A stretch of 64,000 nt of DNA from an uncultured Spirochaetota bacterium (GCA_963781885.1 CAWAHW010000001.1:160001-224000); one strand, 5' to 3'. Positions 2,259 to 48,700 are shown, numbered from the stretch's first letter. Numbers and translations: made by a program. The notes: generated from the letters alone by a model not told the origin.

Positions 2259-3053
2259 GTGTCATTTCTCGAGCGATTGAGCAGGTCCACGGTCGTCAAG
2301 AACGTCCTGACGCTGATCGTCTATGCGTTCTACGCCTGCGTGCTGGGCGCAAGCCTCGCTCCGTCGCTGCTTCTCATCATCTGGGCTTTCGGTCGCATGC
2401 TGTCCCCGGCCATACTGTCCGGGGCAATCCCCGGTCTGGGATCGATCGTGCTCTTCTGCCTGTTCCTCGGCCTGTCGGCATTCGTCTTCTTTTTCTTCGG
2501 CCTGCTCCTGATGGGAGCCATCATTCGTCTCTTCTCCCTCGGCGTGAAGCCTGGCCGGCATGAAGCGGCGTCGACAACGGTGCTCCTGTGGATCGTCCTG
2601 AACGGCGTCTGGACGCTCGCGTTGCGCCTCATCCTGCCGCTCGTGCCCATGACCCCGTTCTCCCAGATGTTCCATCGCCTCTCGGGGTGCAGGATCGGCA
2701 AAAATGTCTGGATCAACACGATCAACATGGTCGACTGCTACATGGTGAGCATCGGCGACAATACGGTGATCGGGGGAGATGCAATAATCTCACCCCACGT
2801 CTTTGAGGACGGCAAGCTCCTCATCCAGCGCATCACGATCGGGAAAAACTGCCTCATCGGGGGCCATTCCTACATCAGCCCGGGCGTGACGATCGGAGAC
2901 GGGAGCATGATCGGCATGAAGGTGTACGTCCGCAAGGGCAGACACATACCGCCGGGGTCGCGCCTGACAGCCGTGGCAGGGCTGTCGTTCCGAGGCGCCC
3001 TCGACCTCGAGCGGGAAACGTATCGGAAGCTGCGCTCCGCGATCAGGAACTAG
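2259..3053 (+). CDS. Membrane-anchored hexapeptide-repeat (left-handed beta-helix) acyltransferase-like protein
   Basis: N-terminal TM helices, then IGKNVW/IGDNTV/IGKNCL/IGDGSM repeats. TTGACT-17-CACACT lies upstream. Confidence 0.75.
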   Translation: MSFLERLSRSTVVKNVLTLIVYAFYACVLGASLAPSLLLIIWAFGRMLSPAILSGAIPGLGSIVLFCLFLGLSAFVFFFFGLLLMGAIIRLFSLGVKPGRHEAASTTVLLWIVLNGVWTLALRLILPLVPMTPFSQMFHRLSGCRIGKNVWINTINMVDCYMVSIGDNTVIGGDAIISPHVFEDGKLLIQRITIGKNCLIGGHSYISPGVTIGDGSMIGMKVYVRKGRHIPPGSRLTAVAGLSFRGALDLERETYRKLRSAIRN

Positions 3054-3473
3054 GCGGGAAGGAGCTTCGCGGAGAGCGTGATCGTCGGTCCCGCAAGCGC
3101 CTTGGAAACGGGGCAGTCCTTCTTTGCCTTTTCAGCAAGCTTCTGGAAATCCGCCTCGGAAACTCCCGGGCACCACGGCTTCCGTGGATAGCTCTATCAG
3201 TGCGATCTTCGGCCCTTCCTCGAGGTGCACCGTCGCGGTGGTGCGCACATGCGTGGGCACGTGACCGGCGTCGGTGAGGAGAGCGGAGAGGAACATCGAG
3301 AAACACCCTGCGTGCGCCGCGCCGATCAGCTCTTCAGGATTCGTCCCCTTGCCGGATTCGAAGCGCGAGGCAAAGGTGTACGGGCCTTCCCAGGTGCCGC
3401 TTCCCAGCTTCATGGCGCCGGAACCTTCTTTCAGGGAGCCCTTCCATTCAGCCGTTGATGCACGAACTGCCAT
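3050..3473 (-). CDS. osmC: OsmC-family peroxiredoxin (frameshift at ~3168, probably a sequencing error)
   Basis: GTNPEELIGAAHAGCFSM. Removing one G restores ...PGVSEADFQKLAEKAKKDCPVSKAL..., with the second Cys and TAG at 3050-3052. Confidence 0.9.
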
Positions 3474-3544
3474 GATAACCTCCACTCCCGCCGCTGCGCG
3501 CAGCGCACCAGCAAGATCAAGGTACTGACGCCGCGCGCAAGGCG

Positions 3545-4735
3545 TCAATGCGACGTTCTTTGGATGCCGCGGAAGGCCTCCGCCATGCGCGTCAGGCATT
3601 CATCGAGGATGCGCCGGGGGCAGGCAAGATTGATGCGCTGCATGCCTTCCCCTCCCTTTCCGAACATCGGCCCTTCGTCAAACCAGACCTTCGCCCTGCC
3701 CAGCAGGAATTCGTTGAGCTGTTGGTCGTTCATGCCCAGGCCGCGCATGTCCAGGAGCGCCAGGTATGTGCCTTCCAGCGGAAAGGCCGTTACCGCCGGC
3801 AGCTCCCGGGCCAGATAGTCCGTCATATACCGGTCGTTCGCCAGCACGTAGGCGCGAAGCTCGTCCAGCCATGCATCGCCCTTGCGCCAGGCCGCCTCGG
3901 CGGCGGCAGCCGCAATTGCATTCGCCGGGCCGGCAAAGAGCGCGCTGTGAGTCTTTTCCAGCCGGGCGCGCAGCCGGGGATCCGGCACGACGGAAAGCGC
4001 GCCGCCCAGACCCGCAAGGTTGAATGTCTTTGTCGCCGACAGGAGCGTGACGCTGACGGCCGCCGCCTCGGGAGAGACGGCGGCGATGGGCACGTGATGG
4101 AAGCCGGGCATCGTAAGGTCGCAGTGTATTTCGTCACTGACGATCACGACGCCGCGCGCGGCGCAGATCGCCGCCAGGTCGCGCAGGGTGTCCGGCTCCC
4201 ACACGCGCGCAACCGGGTTGTGCGGGCTGCAGAGGACGAGCATGCGCGTGCCGGCATCCATCACTTTTTCAAGGCCGTCGAGGTCCATTTCCCATCGGTT
4301 GCCGATGAGCCACAGGGGGTTTTCCACCACGCGGCGCCCATTCCCCCTGATGCGGAGCGGGAACGGGTAATAGACAGGCGGTTGGATCACGACGCCGTCT
4401 CCTGGTTCGGTGAGCGCAAGGATCGCGGCAACGAGCCCCGGGATGACGCCCGGCGTCGGGAGCATCCAGTCGCGCGTCACGGTCCAGCCGTGCCGTCTCT
4501 GGAGCCAGGCTATGGCCGCGTCGAACCAGGAATCCGGCTCCAGCGTGTAGCCGAATATGCGCTGATCCACCCTTGCCTGTATCGCCTCCTGGATTTCCGG
4601 GGGCGCGCGGAAGTCCATGTCGGCAACCCAGAGCGGAAGAAGCCCGCTCCGGCCGGGCGCAAAGCGCTGCGCGAAGTCCCACTTCAGGGAGCTCGTGCCC
4701 CGGCGGTCGATCACGGTATCGAAATCGTAGCCCAT
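3545..4735 (-). CDS. patB: PatB/MalY PLP-dependent cystathionine beta-lyase
   Basis: LPLWVADMDF, LCSPHNP, SDEIHCD, SATKTFNLAG, RINLACP. Confidence 0.9.
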   Translation of the reverse strand: MGYDFDTVIDRRGTSSLKWDFAQRFAPGRSGLLPLWVADMDFRAPPEIQEAIQARVDQRIFGYTLEPDSWFDAAIAWLQRRHGWTVTRDWMLPTPGVIPGLVAAILALTEPGDGVVIQPPVYYPFPLRIRGNGRRVVENPLWLIGNRWEMDLDGLEKVMDAGTRMLVLCSPHNPVARVWEPDTLRDLAAICAARGVVIVSDEIHCDLTMPGFHHVPIAAVSPEAAAVSVTLLSATKTFNLAGLGGALSVVPDPRLRARLEKTHSALFAGPANAIAAAAAEAAWRKGDAWLDELRAYVLANDRYMTDYLARELPAVTAFPLEGTYLALLDMRGLGMNDQQLNEFLLGRAKVWFDEGPMFGKGGEGMQRINLACPRRILDECLTRMAEAFRGIQRTSH

Positions 4736-4766
4736 AACGTATTATATTGATGCAAGGAGGTACCCC

Positions 4767-5435
4767 ATGGCAACGGAGGACACCTTCTCTCCCGCCCCCC
4801 TTCCCCTTACCTTCACGTTATATGGTCATGCCACGCTGTCGATGACCTACGGCACCACGGTAATCCACGTGGACCCGGTCCGGGACTTCGCCGACTATTC
4901 CCGGGCAGCCAGGGCAGACATCATCCTGGTCACCCACGAGCACTCCGATCACCTCGACCTCGAGGCCATCGCCGCGCTGCGCAAGGACACCACTTCCATC
5001 GTGGTCGGTTCCAAGTGCGCGGGCAAGGTCAACGGCGCCATCGTCCTGCACAACGGGGACTCCCGCTCGCTTTCCGGCATCCGCATCGAGGCGGTGCCGG
5101 CGTACAATGTCGCGCACGAGCGGGCGCCCGGCGTGCCCTTCCATCCCAAAGGAAACGGCAACGGCTACGTGCTGACGCTGGGGGACCGCCGGGTCTACAT
5201 CGCCGGCGACACCGAGAACACGCGGGAGATGAAAGCGCTGAAAGGCATCGACATCGCCTTCCTGCCGATGAACCTGCCCTACACGATGACGCCCGAAATG
5301 GTCGCGGATGCGGCGCTCGCCTTCCGCCCGAAGATCCTTTACCCGTACCACGTCGGGGACACGGACACGTCGAGGCTCACGTCCCTGCTTGCCTCGGCGA
5401 AGGACATCGAGGTACGCATCAGACCGATGAAATAG
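4767..5435 (+). CDS. Metallo-beta-lactamase-fold hydrolase
   Basis: THEHSDH, YIAGDT, PYTM. SD AAGGAGG upstream. Confidence 0.85.
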   Translation: MATEDTFSPAPLPLTFTLYGHATLSMTYGTTVIHVDPVRDFADYSRAARADIILVTHEHSDHLDLEAIAALRKDTTSIVVGSKCAGKVNGAIVLHNGDSRSLSGIRIEAVPAYNVAHERAPGVPFHPKGNGNGYVLTLGDRRVYIAGDTENTREMKALKGIDIAFLPMNLPYTMTPEMVADAALAFRPKILYPYHVGDTDTSRLTSLLASAKDIEVRIRPMK

Positions 5436-39657: not shown

Positions 39658-42208
39658 CTACTTTGCCGAGATGAGCTTCTGCAGGGACTGCAGGAGACTC
39701 TTCATGCGCGCATCTTTTTCGGCTGAAATCTTCGTGCTGAGCCAGGCATTCTGCGCGTCCGCGCCCTTCTGGTTTGCAAGCCCCGTCATCAGTGTCGCAA
39801 GCTGATCCATCGCGCTGCGGCGTCCGGTGGTGATCCCGTCGGTGGAAAGCTGCGCGTCGTAGCGGTTCACGCGGCCCAGGATGCCGGAGAAGACCTTGTC
39901 CAGCGTCGAGTAGAATCCCTGGCGGCTGCCCCCCGAGGCGAAAAGCGCCTTGCCCTGGTCGTCCTTGAACTTCGCAAGGTTGTCGTCTTCCTGCTTCGCG
40001 TAGGTGATGTAGGCGGCAACAATATCGTTGAAGTCCGCAAGGTTCTTCTGGTCTTCAGCGGAGAGCCCGGTGCCGTTTGCCGCGGCCGTGGGGGTTGCCG
40101 CGCCAGTCGATGCCACCGACGCTTGCGCCGTTTTCAGCGCCTCGGCGGCGCGATCGGCGAGCTGCCTCTGCCGGTCGGCCTCCTGCCGGGCAGCGGCCAG
40201 GTCCGTCGTGAGCCGGGCATTGTCGGCGCCCAGCTTCGTGACCTGTGCCGTGAGGTCGGCGGCCTTCCTGGTGGCCGCATCGAGGTTCTTCTGCAGATCG
40301 GAGGAAGCAGCCGAGGAGGCGCTGGAGGCATTCGCAATGTCCCCGAACCTCTGGTTGAGCGCGCGCAGGAGCGTCGCGCTGTCGGCCTTTGCCCGGGTCC
40401 TGCGTGCTGCCCAGGAGCGCGATGATGCTCTTCTTGACGGCAAGGATCTCCGCGAGCCCCGCGTCGAGCTGCTTCTGCACACCCGCGAGCTGCGCCGTGA
40501 GAGCGCTCACCTGGTCGGTCTCCGCCTTGAGCGCGGCGGCCGCCCCGTCGTTCATCGCGGCCACGCTGTCGGTGATCCCCTTGACGGCGGCGAGGTTCTG
40601 CTGGCTCTGGGGATAGCCCTGGAGGATGCCGAGATACTGCTGGAGCGCGTCGGGATACTGCCCCTGCTTCTGGAGGGCCGCCGCCTGTGTGAGGAGCGGA
40701 GCCGCCGCCTGGGTCTGATCGTTCTGGCTCTTCTGCGCCGTCAGGGACGCGGTTGCGTTGCCGATGTTGGCAAGCGTCGTGGCAAGCCGCGCGGAGGTCT
40801 CGGGGAGGTAGGTGAAGGCATCCCGGTAGGCCTGGAGCGCATCGGGGAGGCGGCCGGCCGCGAATGCCGCCTCGGCGCGCGCGAGGCCGGCATGGAGGGC
40901 GTCCTGCCGCGCGGCCTCCGCGTCGCGCGCCTTGTTCGTGAAATAGGCGTAGCTCTTTGCGACCTCGGGGATTACCGCCAGCGACTGGCCGTACAACGTC
41001 TCCGCGTCGGCCACCTTGCCGGCGCGCAGCAGGGTGTCGGCATTGGCCACCCGGCTGCGGATGTCGGCAAGCTTTCCCGCGGCATCCACGAGCGAGGCGG
41101 TGTCCACCTTGCCCTTGTCGATCTCGTTCTGCACGAGCGTCGTGAGGGAATCCACAATGAAAAGGTCCACGGTGCGCCGCTTGGCGATGCCGGGAAGCGT
41201 TGCAACGTCACTGGAGTTGACATAGGTGGATATCGCCTGGAGGCTCACAAGAGCCTTGGGGTAATTCTTCGCCGCGATGTCCGCCTGCGCGACGCCGTAC
41301 AGACCGGTGATCTGCTGCGTGACGAGGTCTTCCTGCTGCTTCTGGGAAGTGAGCGCCGTGAGCTGCGCCTGCGTCTGCGCCTCTGAGCTTTGCAGCTCTT
41401 TCGTCTTCTGTGCGAGCTGGGTCTGGAGGTCCGCCTCGCGCTGCCGTGAATCCGCGAGCACCTGCTGACGGTCCGCATTCGCCTTGGCGAGGTCTGAGTT
41501 GAATTGGGCCTGCAGATTCTGCAGCGTCGCTTCCGACTTCTTTCGGTCCTCGTCGGCCTGCGCCTTGAAGGCATCGAGCTGCGTGTTGAACGCGGCGTTC
41601 TGCTGCGCCGACAAGTCGTTGAGCTTCTTCTGGATGTCCGCGTCGGAGAGGCCCTGCTTCTGGAGGCGCGCCTTCTCCGCGTCCAGCTCCGCCTGCAGGG
41701 AGGCCTTCAACTGGCTCTCCTTCTCCTGGACCTTGGCGTCCATGTTCGCCTGAAGGTCCTGTCTCTGCTTGTCGATCTGGGAGAGCTGGGTCTGGATCTG
41801 GCTGATCTGGTTGTTCTTCTCCTGGAGCTTCGCGTCGGATTCCTTCTTCACTTCCTCGATCAGCTTGCCTTCCGCGGTGATGGTGCCGGTGTCCTCGCGT
41901 GAGGCCTGGGTCTCACCCCGCTGGAAAAGGAAATAGAAGAGCGCGAGACCTGCGGCAAGGACCACGACCGCGCCGACGATGACCATGACGGGGAAGAGGA
42001 CGCCGCGCTTGGCAGCCTTGACGGCGAACATCTCGGGGCTCACCGCGATGCGGCTGCCGGTTGCCACCTTCTCGATTTCCGCCCGGATCTCCTTCTGCTC
42101 CTCCCGGGTGATGCCCGAGTCGGGATCGAAGGCGAACTCCTCCCGGTCGTCGGGGGCGAAGCCGAGGGCTTTCCTGAGCGTCAGAGCCTTTTCGAGGAGT
42201 CCCAGCAT
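39658..42208 (-). CDS. Single-TM long coiled-coil/helical-repeat protein; frameshift at ~40393
   Basis: TM helix near residues 70-95, then Q/K/E/A-rich heptads. The C-terminal part is in the 39658..40482 frame. Confidence 0.7.
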
Positions 42209-42273: not shown

Positions 42274-43929
42274 TCATTTGTGCGTCATCACTTCCACCCC
42301 GTCCCAGGCCTCCGGCGGGGGCGTCTTCGCGTAACCCCTGCTCCTCTCCAGGAGCATCGCGGCGATCGGGTCGCGCGGCATGAGCTTCAGCGCGTCCTTG
42401 AAATACCCCGCGGCCCGGGAGAAGCTCCTGTCATAGTACTCCGCCATGCCAAGATTGTGCAGACCCCACGCCTCCTTCTCCGCGGCGGAGAGGTCTCTCC
42501 GGGCGGTGTAGATCTTCACCCCCTGCTTCTTGCCCTTCACCGCGACGGTGTCGAGCAACCGGCAGGGGACGGACTCCTTGATGGAGCGGTGGAGGCTTTC
42601 CGCGAAAAGCAGGTCCTGGTAATAGGTCTTCGTGAGCCCGGCAAGCCGGGAAGCGAGGTTCACCGGGTCGCCAATGACGGTGTAGCTCATCTTCGTTTCG
42701 GTGCCGATGGTCCCGAACGTGACGAGGCCCCGATTGATGCCGACGCTCACGGAAAAGGGACGGTGGCCCGCCGCGGTGCGGCGTCGGTTGAAATCGCGCA
42801 GCGCCTCGGTCATCTCGATGCCGGCAAGCACCGAGCGCAGCGCGTCGTCCTCCCGCTTGACCGGGGCGCCGAAGAACGCCATGACCGCATCCGTGATGTA
42901 CTTGTCCACCATGCCGCCGCGCGCCTGAATGGTGTCCACCATGGCACGGAAGTACGGCTCCAGGGACTGGACGAGCTCGTCGGGCCGCAGCGCGGTGGAG
43001 ATCTCCGCGTAGTTGGTGATGTGGGAGAACATGACGGAGAGAATGCCTTCGTCGCCGCTTACCTTGCTCTCGTTCGCCTGCACCTGCTTGATGACGTCTT
43101 CGGGCACGTACTGGCGGAAGACCTCCTTTATTTTTCGTTCGCGCATGCGCGACACGGCCGCCTTCAGCGCGTACGCCTTGATCTGCCGGTAGGCCGCGTC
43201 GAGGCCGTCCACCATGATGTTGAATGTCTGCGCGAGCTGACCGATCTCGTCGTGGTATTCCACCACCACCCGCTTCGACAGGTCGTTGGTGGAGATGATG
43301 TCCTGCATGGTCGATGCGACGCGGCGCAGCGGCCGGGTGAGGTAACCGGAAAAAAGCAGCACGAGGATCACCCCGCCCAGGATGGCCGCCGCGAGGATGA
43401 TGCCCGTGCGGATGGCGATCTGGTTCACCTGGTCGTAGAACGCGGCCCGCTCCTCGCTCACCACCATGTACCAGCCAAAGGGATCGAACCAGAAGCCCTG
43501 GGCCACGCGGGCCTTTCCCCCGATGGAGACCGTGACCAGGTCGGCGCTCTTCTTCGCGGCAAGCGCGGAAAGCCGCTGCTGCTCGCCGGGCTGGAGCGTC
43601 ACGTCGCTCGTGCTCATCAGCACGGCGCCATCCGGTCCCGTGGCAAGGATGAGCTCCGTGGCGCTCCGCACGATGCTGCGCGCGTAGCCTTCCACGGCCT
43701 GCTGGGTGGCGGAGACCATCTCGGGTTTACCCGTGAGGTTGTTGTCCACCAGGAGCCGCCACTGGCTCTGTGCCTGGGTCTGCAACTCCTCCGACTTGAA
43801 GCCGAGGAAGTCTTTGGCGATGCGCGTGATCCCGTTGGATGCGGAGAAATAACTGCTCACGCCGGTGAGGGCGAGGGTTGCCACGACCAGGGGCACGACG
43901 ATCAGCACGATTTTCAGCCGTATGCTCAC
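42274..43929 (-). CDS. Class III adenylyl cyclase, 2TM-sensor-HAMP-cyclase (C2-like half)
   Basis: HAMP DEIGQLAQTFN. VDKYITDA, YTVIGDPVNLASRL and VKGKK are present. The first metal Asp is replaced (FSHITNY). Confidence 0.9.
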   Translation of the reverse strand: MSIRLKIVLIVVPLVVATLALTGVSSYFSASNGITRIAKDFLGFKSEELQTQAQSQWRLLVDNNLTGKPEMVSATQQAVEGYARSIVRSATELILATGPDGAVLMSTSDVTLQPGEQQRLSALAAKKSADLVTVSIGGKARVAQGFWFDPFGWYMVVSEERAAFYDQVNQIAIRTGIILAAAILGGVILVLLFSGYLTRPLRRVASTMQDIISTNDLSKRVVVEYHDEIGQLAQTFNIMVDGLDAAYRQIKAYALKAAVSRMRERKIKEVFRQYVPEDVIKQVQANESKVSGDEGILSVMFSHITNYAEISTALRPDELVQSLEPYFRAMVDTIQARGGMVDKYITDAVMAFFGAPVKREDDALRSVLAGIEMTEALRDFNRRRTAAGHRPFSVSVGINRGLVTFGTIGTETKMSYTVIGDPVNLASRLAGLTKTYYQDLLFAESLHRSIKESVPCRLLDTVAVKGKKQGVKIYTARRDLSAAEKEAWGLHNLGMAEYYDRSFSRAAGYFKDALKLMPRDPIAAMLLERSRGYAKTPPPEAWDGVEVMTHK

Positions 43930-45590
43930 GAGGCCCTCGGAAGGTCCATGCCGTTCCAGCTCTCCGGGGGAGGCGATTTTTCGAACCGCGCGCAGCGCTC
44001 CAGGAACATCGCGGCAAGCTCATCCCCCGGCAGGGCCTTCACCACGTCGCGGAAGTACCCCGCGGCGCGGGAGAAGTTCCTGTCGTGGTATTCGGCCATG
44101 CCGAGATTGTGCTGGCCCCAGGCGTCGATCTGCCGCGCGTCGAGCGTCCGGCGCGCCGTGTAGATCTTGATCACCCCCGCGGAGGAGACCGGCACCCAGT
44201 CGAGGAGACGGCAGGGGATCTGGTCATGGACGGAGCGATGGAGGCTCTCCGAGAAGATGAGCGGCTGGTGGTAGATCTTCGTGAGCCCCTCGAAATGCTC
44301 GGCGAGCTCCGCCATGTCGCCGATGACCGTATATTCCTTCTTCTTCTCCGTCCCGATGTTGCCGATGGTCACCATGCCGTAGTTGACCCCGACGCCGATG
44401 CGAAACTCCGGCATGCCCGCCGCCTTCTGCCCGACGTTGAAGCCGTCCAACGCCTCGATCATCTCCACGCCCGCACGCACCGATTCCAGCGCGAAGCTCG
44501 ATTTCGCGGCCGGATCCGCCTGCGCGCCGAAGAATGCCTTGATGGCATCGCCGATGTATTTGTCCACGATGCCGTCGCGCTTCATGATGATCGCCACCAT
44601 GGTGTCGAAGTAGCGGTTGAGGGAATGCACGAGCTCGTCGGGCTTCATGCTCTCGGAGATCGTCGTGAAGCTGCGGATATCGGAGAAAAGCACGGAAAGC
44701 ACGCGGTTGTCGCCGACCAGGGTGTCCTCGGGGTTGGCGAAGTACTGGTGGATGACATGCTCGGGCACGAACTTGCCGAACAGGGTCTGCGTGCGCTTCT
44801 CCTGCCTCTGTGCCACGACTGCCTTGAACGCGAATCCCTTGATCTGCCGATAGGCCTCGTTCAGGCGCTCGATCATGAGGTTGAAGGTCTGGGCGAGCTG
44901 TCCGATCTCGTCGTCGTATTCGACGACCACCCGCGCGGAGAGATCGTTCGTGGAGATGATGTCCCGCATCGTCTTCATCACCCGCCGCAGCGGCCGCGTG
45001 AGGTAGCCGGCAAAGACGAGCACCAGGAGCACGCCGATGAGGATGGAACCGGCCAGGATGATGCCCGTGCGCACGGCGATCTGGTTCACCTGGTCGTAGA
45101 ACGCGGCGCGCTCCTCGCTCACGACCACGTACCAACCGAAGGGATCGAACCAGAACGGCTTCGCCACGCGCGAGGCTCCGCCGATGGAGATATTCACGAG
45201 GTCCGTGCTTTTTGCCGCCGCCAGGGCGGCGAGTGACTGCTGCTCACCGGCCTGGTAGGAGACCGGCGAGCTGCTCATCGCGAGCGTGCCATCCGCGGTG
45301 ACCGCGACGATGAGCTCCGTGCGGCTGCGCACGATGCTGCGGGCATAACCTTCCACGGCGGCCTTTGTCGCCGCCACCATCTCCGGCTTGCCGGTGAGAT
45401 TGTTGTCCACGAGCAGGCGCCACTGGCTTTCGGCCTGGTTCTGCAGCTCGAGCGCCTTGAAACCGAGGAACTCTTTTGCGATGCGGGTGATGCCGTTGGA
45501 TGCGGAGAAATAGCTGCTCACCCCCGTGAGGGCGAGGGTGGCGACGATCAGGGGCACGACGATGAGGATGATCTTGAGACGGATGCTCAT
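43926..45590 (-). CDS. Class III adenylyl cyclase, 2TM-sensor-HAMP-cyclase (C1-like half)
   Basis: FSDIRSFT and VDKYIGDA are present. NxxxR is replaced (GDMAELAEHF). Confidence 0.9.
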   Translation of the reverse strand: MSIRLKIILIVVPLIVATLALTGVSSYFSASNGITRIAKEFLGFKALELQNQAESQWRLLVDNNLTGKPEMVAATKAAVEGYARSIVRSRTELIVAVTADGTLAMSSSPVSYQAGEQQSLAALAAAKSTDLVNISIGGASRVAKPFWFDPFGWYVVVSEERAAFYDQVNQIAVRTGIILAGSILIGVLLVLVFAGYLTRPLRRVMKTMRDIISTNDLSARVVVEYDDEIGQLAQTFNLMIERLNEAYRQIKGFAFKAVVAQRQEKRTQTLFGKFVPEHVIHQYFANPEDTLVGDNRVLSVLFSDIRSFTTISESMKPDELVHSLNRYFDTMVAIIMKRDGIVDKYIGDAIKAFFGAQADPAAKSSFALESVRAGVEMIEALDGFNVGQKAAGMPEFRIGVGVNYGMVTIGNIGTEKKKEYTVIGDMAELAEHFEGLTKIYHQPLIFSESLHRSVHDQIPCRLLDWVPVSSAGVIKIYTARRTLDARQIDAWGQHNLGMAEYHDRNFSRAAGYFRDVVKALPGDELAAMFLERCARFEKSPPPESWNGMDLPRAS

Positions 45591-45758
45591 AGACGATACT
45601 CACAATTTCGGCACATCGAAGGCAAAGGTGGAGGCGCGCCCATCCCGGATAAAAATACCCGCGCTGTCGCGGGCGCGCAAGGGCTGGCGCGGGCGCCGGC
45701 GGACCTTGCGCGATTCCCCTTCCCGGGCCATCATGGCTCGCCCGGAAAGGATGGTGCC

Positions 45759-48700
45759 ATGCGTGCGCGCCCGATCGTCCTGACACTCGCAATGCTGGTC
45801 GTCTTCGACCTGACGGCACGCGTGAACGCCGCCGACCGTATTGCCTTCACGCCGCCCGTGGTCTCATCCGAACCGACGGGTCTCGCCGCAACCGTGGGTG
45901 ACATCATCGATCGCGCAACGGAGCTGATGGCCAGGGTCTATGCGCCGAGCTTCACGGTGCAGGCGGACGCGCGTCAGGCCGACTATGCCGCGGCCACCAT
46001 CGCCACGCAGGACAAGGAAACACTCACGATCGTCGTCTCCCTGAAGCGCGCGTCGGACGCCTCGACGACCCCCACGCTGGTCTGGAACGGACCCGAGACG
46101 CCGGATACGCCGCTCTGGCTCGCCCGCGCGGTCTTCCTGCTGTGGAGCTCCTTCCATGGTTTCCTCGCCGACCAGAAGGGCGCGCCCCCGGTCTTCGTCG
46201 ACGAGCTGCCCGTGACGGCGGTGAATCCGCTCGCCACGCCGCTGGGCATCGCCGTCACTCCGTCCGGCACCATCGGCGCCGCGCTCGCGCTGACCTGTGT
46301 GGAGCTCGACAGCACCTTCCGCCTGATGAGCGAGCCGGGCAGGTCGCTCGCGGAGCGCGCGACACCGATCTATATCGGCAGCGTGGCGACCACGCCCGGG
46401 GGTTCGTTCCTCATGAAGCCGAGCACCGGTCGCGACCTCTACCGGCTGCAGCCCGGCGCCGCCGCTCCCCAGCGCATGCCGACCGGCATGGAGCTTTCCA
46501 CCACGTTTTACTGGGCGGCGTACCCCGACGGCAGCGCCCTCCTCATCGACGCCATGAATCACAAGGCCTGGCGCGTGGCCCCGGGCAACAAGCGCCAGGA
46601 GGTTCCGCTCTTCAGCTCGCCCAACTCGTACCCGACCGCTTATGCAATCGGTCCCGAGGGATCTATCTGGGTCTACGACCCGCTCCTTCGCGGCGTGCAC
46701 GTCTACACGGGCGAAGGCAAGCCGCTGGACATCGTGCTTCCCCTGGCCGATCCGTCGACTGCCGTTGCCGCCACCTCCATGGACGTGGGCCCGGACGGCA
46801 GCTTCATCCTGTTCGCGAACAAGACCCTCACGAAGTACCGGCGCGACGGCCGTCTGGTCTGGTCGCTCACGACGCTCGAAGGCTCCGAAGAGCCCGACAT
46901 GCCGGCCACGGCAAGCATCGCGGTGGACTGGTCGCGCGGGCTGATCTACCTCTGCGACGTGCTCGGGAGGCGCATCGTGAAGCTGCTCGACCGCGACGAG
47001 GCTGCCGCGCGCGGCGCGCACGACGATTTCGAGGAAAGGCTGATCGCGCTGCGCGCGGCCGGGCCGGGCGAGGAAGCGCAGGAGGCGGCGGTGGCGAGGC
47101 TCTATGCCGCCGCGGACTCGCCGATCATGGCAAAGACGTGGTGGCAGAAGGTGGCCGACGCGGACCCCGACGACGCCGAGGCCGCGGCGCAGCTTCAGGC
47201 CATCGAGGTGGCGGATCTGCGGACCGCCGCGCAGGCGCTGGACGCCAGCGCGCGCGCCACCCTCGCCACAATCGGCATTGAAACCGCGCGCCTGAGCTAC
47301 ATGCAGGCGATACAGAAGTACGAGCTTCTGCTGAGCAAGGCGCCGGCGGACGAGCAGGCGCGGACGGCGATGAACGCCCTGAAAGACCTGTTCAGCGAAA
47401 ACGGTCAGGGCGCCGTCCCGCAGAAGCCCCTCACCGTGGGCGACATGAAAATTGCCAATCTTTTTCCTTCGCTCATGCAGTGGTACGGGTCGCATCCGCC
47501 CGGCACCGTGACGGTGTCCAACCCGCTTGCCGACCCGGTGGAGAAGGTGCAGGTGAGCTTCTTCATCCCTCAATTCATGGACCTGCCGGTGGAGTCACGG
47601 ACGGTCCCGCGGCTCGGCCCGGGGGAGAGTGCGTCATTCAACCTGGCGCCGGCCTTCAACCAGAAGGTCCTCGAGCTGCAGGAGGACATGACGACGCAGG
47701 TGCAGGTGACGGTGAGCTGGACGGCAGCAGGCGCCGCGCAGTCCACGACCCGCACCGGCAGCGCCACGATCTACCGCAATACCGCCCTCACCTGGACCGA
47801 CACGCGCAAGATCGCCTCCTTCATCACGCCCAACGAATCCACCGTGAGCGGTTTTGCCGCGCGTGTCTTGGCGTCCAGCGACACCGCTCCCCCCGCATTC
47901 CTTTCCAAGACGATATTCCAGGCCATGCGCATCTGCGATGCGGTTGGCGCCTACGGCATCGCCTATGTCCCGGATCCCGATTCCCCCTTCTCCAAGGCCC
48001 TCGGCAAGGCGGAGATCGTGGACACGGTGCGTTTCCCCCGTGTCACGCTCTACAACAGGACGGGCGACTGCGACGATACCACCGCGCTGCTCTGCTCGCT
48101 CTTGGAATCCGCCGGCGTGCGCACGGCGATCCTCACCACGCCGGGCCACATCTTTCTTGCATTCGACACCGGCGAGCCGGGGAGAATGCCCCCTACCTCA
48201 CGGGCGGCGCCTACGAAGCCATGACGCGGGCCGGGGAGGCGTGGATCCCCGTCGAAACGACCATCCTGTCGCAGGGCTTCATGGCGGCGTGGGCATCGGC
48301 ATCGGACCTCGTGCGGAAATACGGCCAGACGGACGGCTTCGAGTTCATCCCCGTGGCAGGCATGCGCGACGCGTATCCCGCGCTGCCGCTTCCGCCCAGC
48401 GCCCTCACCGTCGCGGAGCCGGGACGCTCGAGCGTGGACCATGCCTACGCCGCGTCGCTTGCCGGCTTCACCGATACCCTGTACACCGGCAGGCTTGGCA
48501 GCTTGAATACATCGCTTGCATCCCTCTCCGGCAGCGCGGCGGTCAAGGCGAGGGTGCAGATCGGAATCCTCGACGCTCTTTTCGGGAAGCTGCCGGAAGC
48601 GGAAGTCTCTTTCCGTAAGGCCATTGCCGATGAACCGGCCATGGTGTCGCCATACGTGAACCTGGCGAACGTCCGGATCCTGTCGCACGATCAGGCCGGA

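Follow-up and report, generated by a model that had tools for sequence, protein, structure and literature searches.

Can two tandem genes of one bacterium, each of which has lost a different part of the active site of a class III adenylyl cyclase, together encode one working enzyme? The question is raised by a stretch of 64,000 nucleotides from an uncultured Spirochaetota bacterium (GCA_963781885.1, CAWAHW010000001.1:160001-224000; the window, below), in which two adjacent genes on the minus strand, here called A and B, encode paralogous cyclases with a sensor and a membrane anchor. From the residues that each chain keeps and loses, the conservation of this pattern among relatives and the evolution of the two genes, we conclude that A and B probably form a dedicated receptor adenylyl cyclase, a heterodimer in which one site is competent and the other a degenerate but conserved pocket.

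An earlier reading of the window from its letters alone (the sequence-only reading) had described two paralogues of 554 and 551 residues joined by a GTGA overlap of stop and start codons, and both open reading frames (ORFs) and the overlap read as claimed (Table 1). The GTG start of B has GAGGG 4 nt upstream and is backed by N-terminal homology to A and to orthologues, and the overlap suggests translational coupling of the two genes. The A and B proteins share 357/551 identities (65%, BLASTP). The transmembrane, sensor and HAMP regions had been called nearly identical, which overstates their likeness, as identity over residues 1-254 is 78% for the protein and 77.7% for the DNA; in the cyclase domain the protein identity is 54.5%.

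Both chains have the layout of a HAMP-linked receptor cyclase, in which a transmembrane helix, a sensor and a second transmembrane helix are followed by a HAMP domain and then the cyclase domain (Table 1; the transmembrane spans of A were taken by reading the sequence). The class III cyclase family PF00211 was found above the Pfam cut-off of 21.9 bits in A (59.3 bits, covering profile positions 9-139 of 183 only) and in B (65.1 bits), and HAMP likewise above its Pfam cut-off at residues 193-245 of both (48.9 bits in A, 46.0 bits in B). The extracytoplasmic domain of about 145 residues has no Pfam match, and the NCBIfam matches to the N-terminal halves, all of them receptor-kinase-like, stayed below the threshold. 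Structural modeling of this domain from a 30-row alignment reached a predicted local distance difference test (pLDDT) value of 91.2, and the best folds in the PDB were the single-Cache/PDC sensors 5g4y, TlpB and the WalK ectodomain, at a template modelling score of about 0.6 and a weak E value of about 1e-3. No segment has diverged more between A and B than the linker from HAMP to the cyclase domain (40% identity), although orthologues conserve it (97% in A, 94% in B).

Class III cyclases use six canonical residues: two Asp that bind the metals, a Lys and an Asp or Thr that select the base, and an Asn and an Arg that stabilize the transition state; those with Thr in place of Asp as the second substrate-specifying residue make up class IIIb. 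We set the motif columns by alignment to solved bacterial class III cyclases (CyaB 3r5g, Cya2 2w01 and the 6fht fusion). Within A, both metal-binding Asp (D304 and D348) and the Lys/Thr specificity pair (K344 and T421) are retained, the transition-state Asn and Arg are replaced by Glu and His (E428 and H432), and the KGK phosphate-binding motif is lost. Within B, the first metal-binding Asp is replaced by His (H303) together with the RSFT loop that follows it, and the Gly before the second Asp is changed to Thr; K343, D347, T417, N424, R428 and the KGK motif (K465-G-K467) are kept. Chain A thus holds four of the six residues and is C1-like, chain B holds five and is C2-like, neither has all six, and together they have the complete set on complementary sides. 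Codons and alignment confirm these losses and retentions as the sequence-only reading had given them, and every codon that it named sits where it was placed. Both chains belong to class IIIb, with the motif YTVIG around T421 of A and T417 of B and with CyaB and Cya2 as the closest solved relatives.

In the head-to-tail dimer of class III cyclases, each site brings the metal-binding Asp of one chain opposite the Lys, Thr, Asn, Arg and Lys of its partner. Given this geometry, an A·B dimer would have one complete site, to which A contributes the Asp and B the rest, and a second site in which a metal ligand, the Asn, the Arg and the KGK motif are all missing. Judged by the Lys/Thr pair, the substrate is expected to be ATP.

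We searched 25 GTDB species genomes of the same family, including that of the window (24 of them with a match), and collections of contigs; the related records are metagenome-assembled genomes (MAGs) of Spirochaetaceae/Spirochaetota from fen and peat. Residues were counted in 61 distinct sequences with a complete cyclase domain of this subfamily. The A-type set comprises 12 distinct sequences, after the frameshifted row L038 and the divergent L050 had been left out, and the B-type set 13, after leaving out a duplicate of the B of the window and the divergent L048, L050 and L054. All canonical relatives keep D, K, G, D, T, N, R and KG[K/R] (31/31). The A-type sequences keep D, K, G, D and T, together with the type-specific K351, in 12/12; their Asn column holds Glu (5/12) or Asp (7/12), their Arg column His (11/12) or Asn (1/12), and KGK is lost in 12/12. 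The B-type sequences have the changes of Asp to His and of Gly to Thr in 13/13, and retain the second Asp, K, T, N, R and KG[K/R] in 13/13.

The reciprocal pattern is therefore invariant in all 12 A-type and 13 B-type relatives, where the sequence-only reading would have failed had orthologues not conserved it. That reading had also held that indel errors do not explain the changes, and the same multi-residue pattern is indeed seen again in many independent assemblies, which rules out chance and a sequencing or assembly artefact. Since each chain alone fails the six-residue test, both could in principle be pseudo-enzymes, the pair serving as a receptor, a scaffold or a nucleotide-binding sensor that makes no cyclic nucleotide. 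We regard this as highly improbable: the losses are exactly reciprocal, they leave one complete site that is invariant in both sets and under purifying selection, and random decay would not spare one full site.

Trees of the cyclase region place the A clade and the B clade each on one branch (Shimodaira-Hasegawa-like approximate likelihood ratio test, SH-aLRT, 99 and 99, respectively, in the tree of 38 rows, 94 and 99 in that of 60 rows), with long stems and matching subclades, which indicates that A and B co-diverged. The N-terminal tree groups A and B in a single clade (99/95) that branches from within the canonical genes. At the syntenic locus of G002, G003 and G011, a single canonical gene is flanked by the same upstream and downstream genes as the pair, or, at short loci, by the downstream gene alone. 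Together, this lone canonical gene and the nested clade of A and B point to a tandem duplication in place, followed by reciprocal loss.

Both genes are under purifying selection, with a ratio of non-synonymous to synonymous substitution rates (dN/dS) of about 0.1. Between the genome of the window (G000) and G004, dN/dS was 0.042/0.496 for A and 0.052/0.533 for B, and 0.076/0.485 and 0.053/0.498, respectively, for their cyclase parts. With intact frames and these values against the G004 orthologues, pseudogene decay of the A or B of the window is ruled out. Between the A and B of the window, dS is similar along the chain, but dN increases from 0.15 over residues 1-254 to 0.41 for the cyclase domain and 0.54 for the linker. 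Positions that are fixed differently in A-type and B-type sequences are confined to the linker (5/45) and the cyclase domain (14/191), with none in the N-terminal part (0/244) or the tail (0/70).

The N-terminal halves of the two genes have in some lineages been homogenised. The A and B of G019 are sisters in the N-terminal tree (100/99), and an approximately unbiased (AU) test, on a group that was named after the first tree had been seen, rejects monophyly of the A-type sequences (p = 2.5e-9). In the G019 genome (L064) the two genes are identical from nt 1 to about 720 with 1 mismatch (1397-2120 versus 3065-3788). A second case is the contig L093, where the same stretch differs by 7 mismatches (2501-3220 versus 4162-4881). 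Beyond about 720 nt, identity between A and B drops to roughly 50-60% in both, and the border lies at the same codon in both (approximately 240, at the end of HAMP and the border with the linker). Between G019 and L093 the converted stretch is only 81% identical, and the two are therefore separate conversion events. The N-terminal dS of the pair in the window is 0.76, which speaks against recent conversion there, and no conversion tract that would erase the catalytic difference was seen. These data indicate recurrent gene conversion limited to the sensor, transmembrane and HAMP module. As there are no fixed N-terminal differences and conversion tracts occur, the modules of A and B appear to be interchangeable and repeatedly homogenised, which fits a mixed dimer that needs matched sensor halves.

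Conservation of the arrangement bears on the partner of each chain. Genes of the A or B type occur in 8/25 family genomes, all of the genus of the window. Six of these (G000, G004, G008, G014, G019 and G021) show both copies, adjacent and in the order A then B; G005 shows A alone and G013 B alone because their contigs end there. The 35 metagenome loci comprise 11 with an A-type gene, 17 canonical ones, 4 N-terminal fragments and 3 with B only. Behind the A-type gene, the next gene is of the B type in 10/11 of these loci, and in the eleventh (L072) 56 residues of the next gene are visible. On this metagenome contig of 2145 nt three cyclase genes lie in tandem; of the first, an A-type gene, the tail is present, the second is a complete A-type gene, and the third is represented by its first 56 residues.

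Rather than with each other, A and B might pair non-exclusively with other canonical sensor-cyclases of the cell, in mixed dimers that form a network. Cyclic-nucleotide signalling is very richly represented in the genome (4.64 Mb, 7 contigs), with 15 matches to PF00211 and 22 to cyclic nucleotide-binding domains, 21 of the latter above the cut-off. Of the 13 further class III domains, all retain D, D, N and R but for a weak partial match (L015, 27 bits) with His in the Arg column, and any chain with intact Asp residues could in principle complete B, which also occurs at solitary loci. These other cyclases, however, have different N-terminal parts, and in the catalytic region their identity does not exceed about 36%, whereas the sensor, transmembrane and HAMP parts of A and B are alike, free of type-specific differences and homogenised by conversion. 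With the gene overlap, the conserved adjacency and order and the parallel A and B subclades, this makes such a network quite improbable.

We modeled the predicted A·B complex by folding A245-484 together with B245-481 in the presence of ATP and two Mg, in three runs and with three controls. The catalytic dimer passed its controls, with a score of 0.77 against 0.00 for the best control, a result that reflects likeness to solved class III dimers and does not distinguish A·B from A·A or B·B. This mark is reached by 58/80 solved complexes and 2/110 mismatched pairs; because the alignments were our own and small molecules were included, it is only a rough guide here. At least 90% of the contacts are shared between the runs, and the pLDDT of the partner chains is at least 84. 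The modeled interface consists of a parallel coiled coil of the linkers and the usual head-to-tail contacts of the cyclase domains, in which A 344-348 meets B 417 and B 343-347 meets A 419-421. Type-specific residues are not significantly enriched at the modeled interface (9/19 versus 61/217, p = 0.11), and no clear charge complementarity was seen by eye in the coiled coil of the linkers.

The reach of the model and the lack of enrichment at its interface weigh against an exclusive A·B enzyme, and so do several other observations. The group examined in the AU test on the N-terminal tree had been chosen with a first tree in view. Frameshifts are present in the A-type copy of G019 and in both copies of G021, in assemblies of few contigs, and could be long-read errors or decay. 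B has lost a single canonical residue out of six, namely the first metal-binding Asp, besides the RSFT loop and the Gly; its His303 could in principle ligate a metal, and a B homodimer may have residual activity. Three metagenome contigs (L079, L096 and L097) carry a B-type gene beside the conserved upstream neighbour with no A-type gene, so that B can persist without an adjacent A. In L079, the B gene is intact and its downstream neighbour in place; as it is nested inside the B clade, A has been secondarily lost or moved there. The B of L096 is truncated after approximately residue 392, and that of L097 is cut by the end of the contig.

On this evidence, with five of the six residues and KGK on B and these solitary genes, the B·B homodimer might be the real enzyme, with His303 as a metal ligand and perhaps another metal preference, and A a dead modulator that acts as a dominant negative or integrates signals. 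The first Asp is, however, found in every canonical relative (31/31), and all B-type sequences have the same His in its place (13/13), with the RSFT loop and the Gly lost as well, and one of the three solitary B genes is truncated. Moreover, A keeps D304, D348 and their loop in 12/12 sequences under purifying selection, and a dead modulator would not need these. A metal-Asp mutant of the cyclase Rv1625c, D300A, is described as inactive (PMC4821796). We therefore consider the B·B enzyme unlikely.

For an A·B heterodimer we propose the following. A tandem duplication of one canonical gene for a homodimeric sensor-cyclase would have been followed by reciprocal loss, after which the sensor modules would have been held equivalent, in some lineages by gene conversion, and the catalytic halves held different by selection. 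Co-expressed from the overlapping genes and inserted in the membrane, A and B would pair through the sensor, the transmembrane helices, the four-helix bundle of HAMP, the coiled coil of the linkers and the head-to-tail cyclase dimer. Only one of the two pseudo-symmetric sites would then be complete, with D304 and D348 from A and K343, T417, N424, R428 and the KGK lysine from B, and it would turn ATP into cyclic AMP (cAMP). The other site, made of H303 and D347 of B and K344, T421, E428 and H432 of A, without KGK, would be catalytically dead. Inactivity of the homodimers, formation of the heterodimer, cAMP as the product and a role for the second pocket are what we infer from this pattern. The sequence-only reading had predicted an obligate division of labour of the C1/C2 type. 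Its core is supported by the conserved pattern, the co-divergence, the purifying selection and the A·B model; 'obligate' and the inactivity of each homodimer remain predictions, given the three contigs with B only and the loss of a single residue in B.

The residues of the second site are themselves fixed: His303 (13/13) and Asp347 in B, and in A an acidic residue at 428 (12/12), His432 (11/12), Lys344, Thr421 and the A-specific Lys351. As these replacements are conserved, the site has probably been kept as a pocket. More tentatively, and with considerable doubt on our part, it may have become a new regulatory pocket for a ligand or a metal; the fixation of its residues would fit selection of this kind better than relaxed drift. 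Conversion, for its part, halts at the border of HAMP and linker and keeps the sensors identical. If so, the second pocket would correspond, in a bacterium, to the forskolin or allosteric site, and the locus would be a natural and recent model for the passage from a homodimeric receptor cyclase to a pseudo-heterodimer in which one site is catalytic and the other regulatory.

Other, more divergent pairs were seen at the same syntenic locus. In G024 (L050, C400) the order is reversed, with a B-like copy (FSHI..., VNLASR, KGK) upstream and an A-like copy downstream, the latter retaining both Asp but altered at Lys, Thr, Asn, Arg and the KGK motif; in the 60-row tree the two sit on long branches, weakly placed next to the B and A clades (86 and 90, respectively). 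In G001 (L048/L023, C1) the downstream copy has lost both Asp, and the copy of G010 (L054) the second Asp. These G001 and G010 copies form their own clade among canonical genes (support 96), which makes their loss of metal-binding Asp independent, and the type is probably of independent origin. The upstream copy of G001 keeps D, D and N, has Glu in place of Arg, and contains a frameshift and a TGA in that assembly. Where the A-type gene of G004 reaches a contig end (L035/L017), its last approximately 13 residues turn canonical (...GDMVNLA), and the corresponding piece from a second contig of this MAG (L059/L018) has AELAEH; this contig end is probably chimeric owing to the paralogues.

The pair is flanked by conserved neighbours (Table 1). 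The 717-residue protein is encoded directly after the cyclase gene or genes at pairs and canonical singles alike; its gene is probably in the same operon, and the protein may be a functional partner of the cyclases. The divergently transcribed 821-residue protein has no Pfam family, and an NCBIfam match to anti-phage ProA at residues 584-802 is sub-threshold (46.7 bits, cut-off 1500). The leader between the divergent gene and A contains a terminator-like hairpin, for which no credible Rfam match was obtained (rpfG, 17 bits against a gathering score of 75.9). Promoter and terminator scans inside the operon gave nothing convincing.

Table 1. Features of the A/B locus, in window positions; residue numbers are those of the respective chain.
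Feature	Position	Strand	Remarks
Gene A, C1-like chain	43926-45590	-	ORF, 554 aa, ATG start
Gene B, C2-like chain	42274-43929	-	ORF, 551 aa, GTG start; architecture as in A
A/B stop/start overlap GTGA	43926-43929	-	read from the sequence; TGA stop of A shares letters with GTG start of B
A, transmembrane helix 1			residues 5-27
A, sCache-like extracytoplasmic sensor			residues 28-172
A, transmembrane helix 2			residues 173-195
A, HAMP			residues 193-245
A, linker from HAMP to cyclase	44721-44855	-	residues 246-290
A, class III cyclase domain			residues 291-480, then a short TPR-like tail
B, linker from HAMP to cyclase	43060-43194	-	counterpart of the A linker
A D304, first metal-binding Asp	44679-44681	-	FSDIRSF, retained; Asp in 12/12 A-type
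A D348, second metal-binding Asp	44547-44549	-	KYIGDAIKA, retained
A K351	44538-44540	-	A-type-specific, adjoins the D348 region; Met in B-type and canonical relatives
A E428 to H432 (AELAEH)	44295-44309	-	at canonical VNLASR columns; transition-state Asn and Arg replaced
A E428 codon	44307-44309	-	
A H432 codon	44295-44297	-	
A V468-S-S-A471	44178-44189	-	where KGK is expected; KGK lost in 12/12 A-type
B H303, first metal Asp column	43021-43023	-	FSHITNY; His in 13/13 B-type; following RSFT loop replaced too
B T346-D347	42889-42894	-	second metal Asp retained, preceding Gly changed to Thr; 13/13 B-type
B N424 to R428 (VNLASR)	42646-42660	-	transition-state Asn and Arg retained; 13/13 B-type
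B K465-G466-K467 (KGK)	42529-42537	-	retained; KG[K/R] in 13/13 B-type
717-aa coiled-coil/TPR protein	40055-42208	-	65 nt after B; Pfam TPR_2
821-aa protein, divergently transcribed	45759-48224	+	conserved upstream neighbour in all locus types
Terminator-like GC-rich hairpin and T-run	45657-45677	-	about 67 nt upstream of the ATG of A, within the 168-nt leader between the start of A and the divergent gene

The closest parallel to the proposed division of labour is found in mammalian adenylyl cyclases, where one domain gives the two metal-binding Asp and the other the specificity residues, Asn, Arg and the phosphate-binding Lys, which leaves one active site and a degenerate pocket. The A/B pair likewise splits the residues as C1 and C2 do (VC1·IIC2, 1AZS, 1CJK). 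The PDB matches of A to mammalian cyclases all lie in C1 regions, including the VC1 chains 1azs_A and 1cjk_A (E about 1e-6), and the match of B to AC9 lies in the C2 region. The mammalian enzymes differ in being one fused chain with anchors of six transmembrane helices and the Lys/Asp pair of class IIIa, whereas A and B come from two overlapping genes, have two transmembrane helices with Cache and HAMP, and use Lys/Thr, a pair that A still carries as well. The A/B pair would thus work alike without being a member of the AC1-9 family, which has fused halves, two anchors of six transmembrane helices and class IIIa residues; its origin appears to be independent, recent and inside one spirochaete genus.

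Soluble guanylyl cyclase, with its alpha and beta chains, is a separately encoded heterodimer in which the residues are split. Heterodimers of separately encoded paralogous chains are also described for fungal rhodopsin-guanylyl cyclases and NeoR (PMC8815786, PMC10622942). These enzymes differ from the A/B pair in that they are eukaryotic guanylyl cyclases, have H-NOX/PAS or rhodopsin sensors and are not encoded by tandem overlapping genes.

A laboratory counterpart exists for Rv1625c, of which the mutants D300A and R376A are each described as inactive and as complementing one another when co-expressed (PMC4821796). As in A and B, one chain is without a metal-binding Asp and the other without the transition-state Arg. 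Chimeras of the complementing mutants with different receptors were, by the same account, active yet unregulated, and regulation needed matching receptors (PMC4821796); the sensors of A and B are also kept alike. The Rv1625c pair differs in being a laboratory construct with single point mutations in a natural class IIIa homodimer. The solved sequences closest to A and B, CyaB of P. aeruginosa (3r5g) and Cya2 (2w01, and in the 6fht fusion; E 1e-24 to 1e-33), have the same fold and motif columns, but carry all catalytic residues on one chain and form homodimers with two equivalent sites. The canonical sister genes (L037/L066 of G002 and L041 of G011) share the architecture and the neighbours of the pair at 57-66% identity, but each stands alone at its locus and has the full catalytic set (31/31).

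Bacterial class III cyclases are presented as homodimerizing monomers and set apart from the eukaryotic pseudo-heterodimers (PMC4821796, PMC9552081), a difference called fundamental in one of these two sources. Full-text searches of the literature yielded no natural two-gene class III heterodimer of bacteria, although non-open reviews and supplements may hold predictions of one. If the division of labour between A and B is real, the asymmetric design of cyclases evolves readily in bacteria, here within one genus, and the pair would be a half-of-sites enzyme whose spare pocket may be regulatory. Several stages are visible side by side, from the single canonical gene in sister species to the tandem pair, the homogenised sensors and the catalytic halves held apart, so that the origin of asymmetric cyclases becomes testable with two small, clonable genes.

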